Notes under the pieces: model-generated
Told to the model about the DNA's origin: nothing
The model's input: only the letters and a program-made list of their open reading frames with translations
The model's database searches: none
IMG/VR virus record: IMGVR_UViG_3300044970_000368
Location: 1 to 62,060 of that record
Strand: one strand, 5' to 3'
Length of the DNA: 62,060 nucleotides
From: a virus
Taxonomy: Duplodnaviria; Caudoviricetes
Program-made: the position numbers and the translations under genes
Shown: in pieces, positions 18,890-20,327 of the stretch
Numbering within the stretch: position 1 is the stretch's first letter
Layout of the letters: each line of letters opens with the position of its first letter

Positions 18890-19363
18890 CTACTTCTCGC
18901 CCTGTTCCAGCGCAAGTGGTTCAGCGTTCTCCAGTTCGATAACTTCACGCTCATTGCCGCGATTAGGAATAGTGAACGATAGCGTAAGGTTTTGATTGTT
19001 GTTGCTTTCAAGCTCGATCTTATCGCCATATTTCTTGGGAGCAATCTTGCTGGATGCCCACTTCAGAGCGTCCATGCGTAATCGGCCAATGCTTGCGTCA
19101 TGTGCGCCAAAGGATTCGTCAATGATCATCTCGGCGTAATAGTCTGCCTGACGAACTCGCGCCCGTGCGTATTGATCACGAAAGCTTTCGTTGCTATCAA
19201 GCCACCTGTAGATCGTTCCTGCTGGTGGCATATGCTCATCAAGAACCATTTTTCGCAGTGTTTCACCATGTGCGAGACGTTCACAAATCTCATCAGCTAT
19301 TGCTTGATTGTAAATTGTCGGTCTTCCACCTTTATTTTTCTCTTTTGTAACTTCTTCGCTCAT
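18890..19363 (-). CDS. terS: Terminase small subunit
   Basis: GRPTIY..IADEICERLAHGETL and KWASSKIAPKKYGDK (Sf6/P22-type). Confidence 0.88.
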   Translation of the reverse strand: MSEEVTKEKNKGGRPTIYNQAIADEICERLAHGETLRKMVLDEHMPPAGTIYRWLDSNESFRDQYARARVRQADYYAEMIIDESFGAHDASIGRLRMDALKWASSKIAPKKYGDKIELESNNNQNLTLSFTIPNRGNEREVIELENAEPLALEQGEK

Positions 19364-19481
19364 AATCTATTTGCAGTGGGTAAAAATAAGTCTTGACGTG
19401 TTTTGAGTTGTTGTTATTATCTCGGAAACCGAGGTGTTAGTGTATGATGTTTCCTCGAAAGTAACAGTTCTGTTGCTATCT

Positions 19482-19802
19482 TCAATCATCGAGTTTCGCT
19501 GATTTCGATTTCCGTGCGTTCTTCTGTTTTGGTTTTGACTTTGATTTGCCTGAAGTCAACTTCGATGTCTTCTGGCGAGTCGTCTTTGATGAGTTTAGCG
19601 TAACGTAATTGGTCAATAATTGGCTTACAGCCTCCTGCGTAGTTGTCGCAGTCGAGTGGTCTGCAAGAATATCTTGTAATGCGGAGGTGAGTGCGTTGGC
19701 GGCCAGTTTCTTTTCCTTTGCGTAGTGGCTCCAGTGTTTGTTTAGGAGCGTGTTTAGCGAGGGTGTTAAGTAGCCCTTTATGATTAGGTGAATATGATCC
19801 AT
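19482..19802 (-). CDS. Overlapping +1-frame ORF resembling the RusA N-terminus
   Basis: MDHIHLIIKGYLTPSLNTLLNKHWSHYAKEKK; open for 106 codons. Confidence 0.5.
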   Translation of the reverse strand: MDHIHLIIKGYLTPSLNTLLNKHWSHYAKEKKLAANALTSALQDILADHSTATTTQEAVSQLLTNYVTLNSSKTTRQKTSKLTSGKSKSKPKQKNARKSKSAKLDD

Positions 19803-19854
19803 CTGGTTGTTCAGTGTAGCCAAGTTTTTTTAAAAAATTAATACTAATGCTCAT
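19486..19854 (-). CDS. RusA-like Holliday junction resolvase, catalytic part
   Basis: RPLDCDNYAGGCKPIIDQL..AKLIKDDS. Confidence 0.8.
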   Translation of the reverse strand: MSISINFLKKLGYTEQPDGSYSPNHKGLLNTLAKHAPKQTLEPLRKGKETGRQRTHLRITRYSCRPLDCDNYAGGCKPIIDQLRYAKLIKDDSPEDIEVDFRQIKVKTKTEERTEIEISETR

Positions 19855-20327
19855 ATATGGTTCAGCAGTTCAAAGTTATTCCTTGGTGATCCATTCCAGC
19901 GAATTGATGATTGTCCGCATATGTCCTTGAGTCTGTATAATGCCCAGCAGTTTTGTTGTGCAATGTGTGCAGCAAGAACGTCAAAGTCTCCTTCATGATA
20001 ATTTGTGTAAAGCGATCCTCTGTCATTTGGATTTGCAGCGCAAGATGGTTTTTTTGATGACGTTGATATTTGATAAGAATTTATTGATTTTGATCCTGCT
20101 CTTTTAACTTGAACGCTGATTGGCTTTGCTGGTGATTTCCAGATTATGCAGTCAGCTTTTTGAGCATGACCTATTGGCATGAAAACATCAAATCCATTTT
20201 TTGCTGCCTCAATAGCGAACATGATTTCAGACAATGTTCCAGTTCTTGCGTTGTCATTGCCTTTCTTTTCATCGCACTCCAACGAATACTCTGTCAGATC
20301 AAATAATGTTTCTTGCAGGCTAATCAT
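19851..20327 (-). CDS. PD-(D/E)XK endonuclease, homing-type
   Basis: GTLSE, GFDVFMP, ADCII, SVQVK. Confidence 0.75.
   Translation of the reverse strand: MISLQETLFDLTEYSLECDEKKGNDNARTGTLSEIMFAIEAAKNGFDVFMPIGHAQKADCIIWKSPAKPISVQVKRAGSKSINSYQISTSSKKPSCAANPNDRGSLYTNYHEGDFDVLAAHIAQQNCWALYRLKDICGQSSIRWNGSPRNNFELLNHI

Follow-up and report, generated by a model that had tools for sequence, protein, structure and literature searches.

Can the single domain of a small nuclease be written as two halves in two overlapping reading frames of the same DNA? The question is raised by a stretch of ~370 bases on the minus strand of a lake-water phage (Duplodnaviria; Caudoviricetes; IMG/VR virus record IMGVR_UViG_3300044970_000368), the whole 62,060-bp record being the window analysed here. 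Two nested open reading frames (ORFs) occupy this stretch. The longer one, which we call f0 (19486-19854; ATG at 19854, TGA ending at 19486; 122 aa), comprises an N-terminal motif, an unconserved linker and a C-terminal half resembling the Holliday junction resolvase RusA, and it contains RTHLRITRYSCRPLDCDNYAGGCKPIIDQLRYAKLIKDDS. The other, f1 (19482-19802; ATG at 19802, TGA ending at 19482; 106 aa), lies on the same strand in the +1 frame relative to f0, so that passing from f1 to f0 is a -1 shift. The N-terminus of f1 is MDHIHLIIKGYLTPSLNTLLNKHWSHYAKEKKLAANALTSALQD, and the ORF runs through a strand (beta1), the motif TPSLN and a helix (alpha1) into a tail rich in Ser, Thr and Lys; in the ORF listing it begins earlier, at TTG 19823. 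An earlier note on this DNA had described the two ORFs, and its coordinates, strand and motifs were exact, so that the observation of two overlapping frames with RusA-like halves is confirmed. The note had also remarked that the f1 helix overlaps an f0 strand on the same DNA. Read directly, nucleotides 19677-19695 are indeed common to the end of the f1 helix (A37-L42) and to the f0 strand R54-I59.

Our analysis indicates that the answer is probably yes: the locus would encode one RusA-like Holliday junction resolvase as two nested genes, the two chains of which rebuild the fold between them. A two-chain enzyme from overprinted genes was one of the explanations offered in the earlier note, and it gains support from selection in both frames, from the separate starts of f1 and from the open f1 tail, while the association of the chains, their stoichiometry and their nuclease activity are what we infer from this evidence.

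Recurrence of the overlapping frames

The f0 homologues numbered 128, most of them full length at 122-125 aa. The fetched loci comprised 22 viral and 80 metagenome loci, and 97 of 103 records passed our filters (86 unique). In every one of the 97, the +1 frame contains the motif [TS]PS[LV]N preceded by an ATG. Across the full viral loci (19/19), this frame is open from its ATG to about the f0 stop and has the same motifs; in the long ORFs of the window, a +1 stop occurs every 25 codons on average and the median open run is 16 codons. The six records that were dropped include four cut by contig ends and two without a start under the rule used. L022, L035, L040 and L064, all dropped, still have the two motifs in this frame relationship, and L015 and L021, which are cut by contig ends, show one motif each.

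A scan with 24 distant family members yielded 61 unique distant viral loci, of which 60 have PSxN in the +1 frame and one has TTSLN there. The motif adjoins the catalytic half in f0 in none of these 61 loci, the match in L183 being a chance one far upstream. Loci from metagenome-assembled genomes (MAGs), mostly of Verrucomicrobiota, are likewise split (9/9), and the contigs of three DNA runs, two of which are possible sources of this DNA, have no indel within the gene. Because it recurs in 86 related, 61 distant viral and 9 MAG loci, the layout is not an assembly error. The earlier note had judged a single sequencing indel to be a poor explanation, and that judgement now extends over ~150 unique loci.

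The most distant split locus, L112 (a MAG of Verrucomicrobiia; 37% identity), differs in detail, with f1 ending right after the helix and a Gly/Ala-rich insert in f0 before the second strand (beta2). Its appearance is that of a classical frameshift pair or of a split at an early stage. Cultured phages gave no match, either by DNA search in distant mode or by tblastn of f0, and therefore no cultured host is known.

Frame-specific selection and the dual-coded zone

Per-position entropy in a codon alignment of 51 unique sequences changes phase twice along the gene. In f0 codons 1-23 (19786-19854), which hold the N-terminal motif (a short helix followed by a GY....DG.Y hairpin), variation falls at f0 third positions, a pattern that shows selection in f0 only. 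The entropies at codon positions 1/2/3 are, in bits, 0/0/1.05 for G12, 0/0/0.63 for Y13 and 0/0/1.32 for G19, and these three residues are invariant. From codon 24 to 59, variation lies at the first position of the f0 codon, equivalent to the third of the f1 codon, and is ~0 at the other two. From codon 60 to 122, it is back at f0 third positions. The unconserved f0 linker (codons 24-53; 19696-19785) is thus the out-of-frame shadow of the coding part of f1, residues 1-43 (19674-19802), which spans beta1 (IHLIIKG), TPSLN and alpha1 (through ..ALTSALQ) and is the part of f1 under purifying selection.

The same pattern was obtained from residue and codon frequencies in 70 loci with standard spacing. 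Over beta1-alpha1, the majority residue has a frequency of 0.51 in f0 and 0.75 in f1, with 1.45 and 2.94 synonymous codons per majority residue, respectively. Over the catalytic half, the corresponding values are 0.86 and 0.64 for the majority residue and 2.4 and 1.6 for synonymous codons, so that the synonymous-codon counts of the two frames are mirror images between segments. Ten f1 residues are invariant in 38 diverse sequences (Y11, T13, P14, S15, L16, N17, L20, H23, K31 and L38). The earlier note had proposed that homologues be examined for an open +1 frame and suppressed synonymous variation, and the openness reported above is joined here by constraint that is specific to frame and segment.

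Between these segments lies a short zone (19674-19695; f0 R54-T60, f1 A37-Q43) in which the majority residue is frequent in both frames (0.72 in f0 and 0.84 in f1). Codon usage in the relatives is telling here. The f0 residue R54 is CGC in 69/70, and the f1 codon preceding it always ends in C, yet the residue that this codon encodes varies (R, L, I, N or T). Similarly, f0 I59 is ATT in 84/86 and the preceding f1 codon ends in A in 85/86. On the f1 side, the Ala of the zone is written GCA54/GCT9/GCG6; the Ser is kept in 83/86 with all four TCN codons (TCC35/TCA21/TCG15/TCT12); and the Leu is kept in 85/86 (TTA79/TTG6). Judged by these codons, ~7 codons (19674-19695) are constrained in both frames, and therefore no single-frameshift product holds all of the conserved residues. 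Since conserved f1 residues continue as far as L42 and those of the f0 catalytic half already begin at R54, on shared nucleotides, two products must cross this stretch in different frames. Overall, both frames are under purifying selection, in complementary segments that overlap by these ~7 codons.

A clade of 16 loci (L037 and 15 others) has eight extra codons at the junction, between KQKK of f1 and ITRF of f0. Here ~30 nucleotides are almost invariant at every codon position, reading LARTALLSAIR in f1 and SKDCTAKCNP in f0; they may represent a longer dual-constrained stretch or an RNA element. As to the openness of the f0 linker, synonymous resampling is a weak test in the G+C-rich clades, where it gave P ~0.3-0.7.

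Two halves of one RusA-like domain

Profile searches of both frames, which the earlier note had recommended, gave a divided result. The f0 product matches the PHROG families of RusA-like Holliday junction resolvases phrog_1682 (E 9.4e-07, residues 33-121) and phrog_34 (E 5.3e-06, residues 51-121), the match being confined to its C-terminal half; f1 alone gave no such match, and its link to the family runs through an unsplit relative, P0276. Neither f0 nor f1 matches Pfam RusA (PF05866) at E <= 1, and other members of the family also fall below the gathering score of that model (22.8 bits), with 20.1 bits for P0276, 17.2 for P0291 and 13.8 for the fused P0104. A search of PDB sequences with the f0 profile returned no RusA, the sole match being a weak and unrelated one (4tn0, E 0.036).

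Unsplit, single-frame relatives are few among the 2,481 cluster representatives found at E <= 0.001 in a HMMER search with the f0 profile, and PSxN is in frame in 3 of the best 150 representatives. One of them is P0276 (117 aa, a singleton), which reads through strand, TPSLN, long helix and loop and then VKITRRSTKLLDVDN in one frame. Another singleton, P0275, begins at the helix (HW) and runs via the loop into RLRITSY...LLDQDN. The full unsplit form is also represented by P0291 (133 aa, 8 contigs), retrieved with P0276 as the query, whose match to the RusA-like PHROGs starts from residue 6 or 12. When profiles were compared with hhalign, f1 aligned with residues 1-31 of P0276 (probability 86.9%, E 4.2e-06), a protein that also matches f0 positions 52-111, and f0 aligned with residues 57-123 of P0291 (probability 96.5%, E 9.9e-10). 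As the two profiles match the two ends of unsplit proteins, a single RusA-like domain has its N-terminal half in f1 and its C-terminal half in f0.

The catalytic half of f0 (R54-R122; 19489-19695), delimited by the AlphaFold2 (AF2) model, by structural alignment with VIA-align and by hhalign, is predicted to consist of beta2, the LDCDN...GGCK helix alpha2, an acidic pair and strands beta3 and beta4. Its candidate catalytic DxDN motif (L67-D68-C69-D70-N71; 19642-19656) stands out by its invariance among relatives, with L67, D68, D70 and N71 unchanged in 38 sequences. In the second acidic motif (D91-D92; 19579-19584), D92 never varies and D91 has a conservation of at least 90%. Residues D68, D70, N71, K77 and D92 are invariant in the 24 distant family members as well. 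The catalytic residues of E. coli RusA are Asp70, Asp72, Lys76 and Asp91; the comparison with f0 is one of aligned ranges.

The f0 N-terminal motif, L..LG[YF]....DGS[YF], recurs across very different subfamilies and was found in 26 of the best 150 representatives, whereas other subfamilies have different f0 N-termini. A search of the ESM Atlas with this motif gave no usable match.

The AF2 model of f0, built from an alignment of 38 rows, has a mean predicted local distance difference test (pLDDT) score of 72.7. It contains helices at residues 5-10 and 69-85 and strands at 13-15, 21-23, 55-63, 97-105 and 113-120, with no structure predicted at residues 24-54 (linker pLDDT 56-60). The RusA fold has the order beta1-alpha1-beta2-alpha2-beta3-beta4. 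VIA-align ranked E. coli RusA (1q8r_A) first among 48,161 chains for this model, a rank that is tied with unrelated folds of the 4-OT/MIF type. In the superposition, f0 residues 52-122 align with residues 52-118 of 1q8r_A (Z 4.8, root-mean-square deviation (rmsd) 2.9, 65 aligned, 20% identity), at this top but tied rank. Foldseek found nothing for the f0 model in the PDB at E <= 0.001.

Start codons and translation

Both frames have a start of their own in all related loci. At the f0 start, [AG]TGA is present in 86/86 unique loci. In the window this is an ATGA overlap (19851-19854) that joins the f0 ATG to the TGA of the upstream gene at 19851-20327, which is in the f1 frame. In most related loci, too, an upstream ORF in f1 phase ends with a TGA overlapping the f0 start, although the upstream genes themselves differ. 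The upstream gene of the window encodes 158 aa and belongs to phrog_5018, a family of unknown function.

An f1 ATG upstream of beta1 is likewise present in 86/86 unique loci, and its position is not constant. That of the window falls within f0 Asp18-Gly19, 52 nucleotides downstream of the f0 ATG. The G+C-rich clades have an f1 ATG also, or solely, inside Thr-His-Glu, four codons past the f0 start, and the L037 clade has it a few codons further on than that site. Some distant loci, L141 and L178 among them, have it directly before beta1, and in L141 it is upstream of the f0 ATG. The codon GAT for Asp18, which creates the f1 ATG, is used in 62/83 sequences, while the other Asp codons of the gene are GAT in 176/559. 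Each of the 21 sequences in which Asp18 is GAC has another f1 ATG.

Because both frames are under selection, translation of both is well supported and we infer it strongly. The arrangement points to routine initiation at two closely spaced codons, one per frame, following a coupled stop. A/T-rich leaders (e.g., aaataaatat before ATG) that lack a Shine-Dalgarno sequence precede most genes of this phage, GGAGG being found in few only. These leaders, together with the mainly Verrucomicrobiota MAG matches, hint that the host makes weak use of Shine-Dalgarno sequences; judged by those matches, it is probably a freshwater member of Verrucomicrobiota.

The open tail of f1

Past the helix, f1 overlaps the f0 catalytic half and reads it in another phase (residues 44-106; 19485-19673). 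The sequence of this tail is unconserved, and the frame is stop-free in the window and stays open over 53 or more further codons in 66/67 sequences. In synonymous resampling of f0 with the codon usage of the flanks, the probability of an open f1 tail was 0.046 for the window; within its clade it ranged over 0.001-0.05, and the remaining sequences mostly gave 0.01-0.2. Codon choices within f0 provide an internal control. Leu codons ending in A or G number 1/154 before A versus 62/128 before C or T, and for Val the counts are 0/107 versus 16/63. By this measure, the f1 tail is kept free of stops, as stop-making codon choices are avoided only in the dangerous contexts.

The tail has a net charge of +3 to +14 (0 in the truncated L047). 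There was no signal of selection on this positive charge (mean z 0.26, 39/62 above 0), and the charge is no higher than f0 coding forces. The reason for stop avoidance could, as a guess, be a functional basic tail or, alternatively, termination near the next start codon.

Weighing the explanations

Several observations weigh against a two-chain resolvase and need to be set beside the evidence above. All of the counts come from related sequences and do not represent independent events. The support for translation comes from sequence comparison; the contigs of the one RNA-library run are pieces of relatives that cover parts of the gene and perhaps derive from DNA carry-over, and contigs are in any case uninformative on transcription, starts and frames. 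A Shine-Dalgarno sequence is present at neither start, though most genes of the phage are without one too, and its absence at f0 and f1 therefore says little. The f1 tail is shortened in L047, with a stop at codon 88, and in L112, with a stop right after the helix; the tail is therefore not always needed. On its own, f1 matches no RusA model in Pfam, PHROGs or the PDB profile search (0 hits), and 0/38 f1 sequences match a RusA-like PHROG. It is assigned to the family through unsplit metagenomic relatives that include two singletons (P0276 and P0275), and with the recurrent P0291 the f1 profile aligns over 11 columns only (hhalign, E 0.011).

The complex prediction also belongs among these points. 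Joint modelling of the two chains, another proposal of the earlier note, was carried out for f0 with f1 residues 1-52 and gave a score of 0.44 where the best of three controls reached 0.01, which places it above its controls but at the level of a weak pass. The mark for a pass is reached by 58/80 solved complexes and by 2/110 mismatched pairs, and scores of 0.60 or less among the passes belong to 7/80 solved complexes and to both passing mismatches. At least 82% of the contacts are common to the runs, with a partner pLDDT of at least 59. These models lend weak support to an assembly of chains f0 and f1.

Finally, two natural proteins fuse the start of f1 in frame with the f0 catalytic half, P0198 (112 aa) and P0104 (100 aa), each known as one sequence on one contig. 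Given that they exist, a single chain may be viable; they may otherwise be revertants, deletion variants or sequencing errors. The model of P0198 has the element order strand-helix-strand-helix-strand-strand. It is of low confidence (mean pLDDT 57) and its alignment has three misplaced residues and no cover of beta2, and 1q8r_A (chain residues 1-118) comes at rank 4 only (Z 5.0, rmsd 4.3, 97 aligned).

Such a single chain is also what recoding would produce. A programmed -1 frameshift, or another recoding event, might join the N-terminal half in f1 to the catalytic half in f0, the unshifted f1 and the full f0 then being by-products or extra forms of a single-chain enzyme. The step from f1 to f0 is -1, as in classical cases, A_AAR occurs in f1 phase in 112/130 loci, and the natural fusion P0198 joins f1 ...LAL to f0 RVRITRH. 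L112, with its f1 stop after alpha1 and a loop of 8-9 residues in f0 before beta2, resembles an orfA/orfB pair. Yet the canonical X_XXY_YYZ heptamer was found in f1 phase in 0/130 unique loci between PSLN and three codons past I59, 18/130 are without any A_AAR in that phase, and the singletons P0198 and P0104 could be sequencing errors. The slip site that the earlier note had placed near AAG GAA AAG AAA is not favoured either. Its GAA AAG AAA (f1 E30-K31-K32; 19707-19715) varies synonymously among relatives (GAG43/GAA26 for Glu, AAG43/AAA27 for Lys), and a shift there would lose the conserved f1 residues A37, L38, S40 and L42. More generally, conserved f1 S40 and L42 lie downstream of conserved f0 R54, and no single shift retains both. 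Recoding would also leave unexplained the conserved f0 start and N-terminal motif, the openness of f0 across the whole f1 part in all loci and the stop-free f1 tail. We therefore regard recoding as an unlikely account of the family, although it may act as an additional route, least unlikely in branches such as L112. A double frameshift from f0 to f1 and back to f0, which would give one chain, was also considered and is ruled out by the dual-coded zone and the independent f1 starts.

Alternatively, f0 alone could be the nuclease, its hairpin replacing the missing strand, with f1 a separate small protein such as a regulator, an inhibitor or a DNA-binding accessory. The wide conservation of the f0 N-terminal motif and its predicted beta-hairpin would suit this idea, as would the basic tail of f1 and the weak pass of the complex prediction. 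However, the conserved part of f1 coincides exactly with the strand-PSLN-helix segment, which in unsplit relatives runs on directly into the catalytic half, f0 has no counterpart of alpha1, and its residues 24-54 are unconserved and unstructured. Moreover, some family members are without the f0 N-terminal motif yet keep f1, and the charge of the tail lies within what f0 coding forces. We consider this division of labour improbable, to much the same degree as recoding. An artefact or decay, i.e., an assembly indel or a pseudogene with a second frame open by chance, is the least credible explanation by far. A single window would not exclude an indel, and an open +1 run of 106 codons has a chance of ~1-5% per sequence, but the same layout in so many unique loci from many independent assemblies, the frame-specific selection and the intact contigs of the three DNA runs speak strongly against it.

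Comparison with known systems

The two-chain resolvase that we favour has its closest parallel in E. coli RusA (1q8r; PF05866; PHROGs 34 and 1682), a Mg-dependent enzyme with sequence-selective cleavage of Holliday junctions. It resembles RusA in the top-ranked but tied superposition of the C-terminal half, in the PHROG match and in the invariant DxDN, K and DD of f0. RusA, however, is one chain of ~120 aa, and in its homodimer each subunit is one polypeptide. In the present locus, ~50 residues at the start of the fold lie in the other frame of the same DNA, and the halves are in different frames in all loci examined. The absence of a Pfam RusA match for f0 and of RusA from the PDB sequence search is a further difference. 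The unsplit P0291 and P0276 share with the locus both TPSLN...W...basic helix start and the catalytic half (V/L)D.DN..GG.K...D.L.....I.DD. They differ in that a single frame runs from alpha1 through a loop of ~10 residues into beta2, while in the window the loop is absent and the DNA of the alpha1 end (f1) is also that of beta2 (f0).

With respect to genetic layout, the Rz/Rz1 spanin genes of phage lambda provide a comparison, one gene being nested in the +1 frame of the other on the same strand and both products being needed as a complex. The likeness lies in this +1 nesting and in the joint function as a complex, which is proposed for f0 and f1. Rz and Rz1, in contrast, are unrelated proteins, and Rz1 was overprinted de novo, whereas f0 and f1 would be two halves of one ancestral single-domain enzyme. 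Pairs expressed by -1 frameshifting, such as G/GT, dnaX and orfA/orfB of IS3, have a conserved slippery heptamer, an upstream ORF that ends soon after it and a downstream ORF without its own far-upstream start. Like them, the locus consists of two ORFs that overlap, the downstream part being read in the -1 frame; unlike them, it has no heptamer, f0 starts upstream of f1 and both frames are constrained across the junction. Cases of -1 frameshifting in phage tail assembly chaperones are described in two papers (PMC10927666, PMC5506516).

Our literature search found no description of a split, overlapping or frameshifted RusA. 'RusA/RuvC' is named among predicted frameshift genes in PMC10885494; the one RuvC/Holliday reference found in its list is a 1991 ruvC paper, and its supplements might list the phage genes concerned.

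Genome setting

The virus record is complete, with direct terminal repeats, and every long gene of the window is on the minus strand. The locus stands at the end of a replication/recombination module whose genes, upstream of f0, include those for an O-like initiator, a DnaB-like helicase, SSB, an HNH endonuclease and a sigma-like regulator as well as the phrog_5018 gene. The gene for the small terminase subunit follows directly after the locus, starting at 19363. Such a place, between the close of the replication/recombination module and the terminase, is typical of lambdoid phages. An ORF of 40 codons (19367-19489, minus strand) overlaps the f0 stop with its ATG (ATGA). As the f1 stop lies 4 nucleotides past the f0 stop, both frames end within 5 nucleotides of the start of this small ORF.

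Proposed mechanism, origin and significance

Taken as a working model, ribosomes would initiate at two nearby starts, the f0 ATG at 19854, which overlaps the upstream stop, and the f1 ATG at 19802 in the +1 frame. The f1 chain would contribute beta1, the PSLN motif and alpha1, followed by its unconserved basic tail; the f0 chain would contribute the N-terminal hairpin motif, the linker and the catalytic half with beta2, the DxDN...K helix, DD, beta3 and beta4. The two chains would then associate non-covalently into a RusA-type alpha/beta fold, which, in keeping with a gene just upstream of that for the small terminase subunit, may cut branched DNA before packaging. As to origin, an unsplit ancestor probably acquired an indel that shifted the frame within its alpha1-beta2 loop, after which the loop would have been lost.

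A more far-reaching form of this idea is that a single-domain enzyme has been split permanently by a frameshift ('frameshift fission'), that the two nested genes have a common region for translation start, that both chains are obligatory and jointly restore one catalytic fold, that the arrangement is stable across hundreds of phage lineages and that a helix end and a beta-strand of one fold share the same DNA. We put its chances slightly above even. If true, the locus would be a natural and long-lived case in which a single fold is encoded by two frames over one piece of DNA and put together from two chains. Normally, when phage genes overlap, an old gene is accompanied by one that arose de novo and is often disordered. 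In this locus each ORF would be half ancestral and half overprinted, and both frames of a short stretch would encode structured elements of one and the same fold. The family would then offer a test case for the limits of dual coding and for fragment complementation in nature. There is also a practical side to this, in that gene callers report f0 alone; f1 was called as a gene in 13 database proteins compared with 128 f0 proteins. Because f1 is rarely called and PSxN is rarely in frame, many 'RusA-like' or 'hypothetical' annotations may leave out half of the enzyme.

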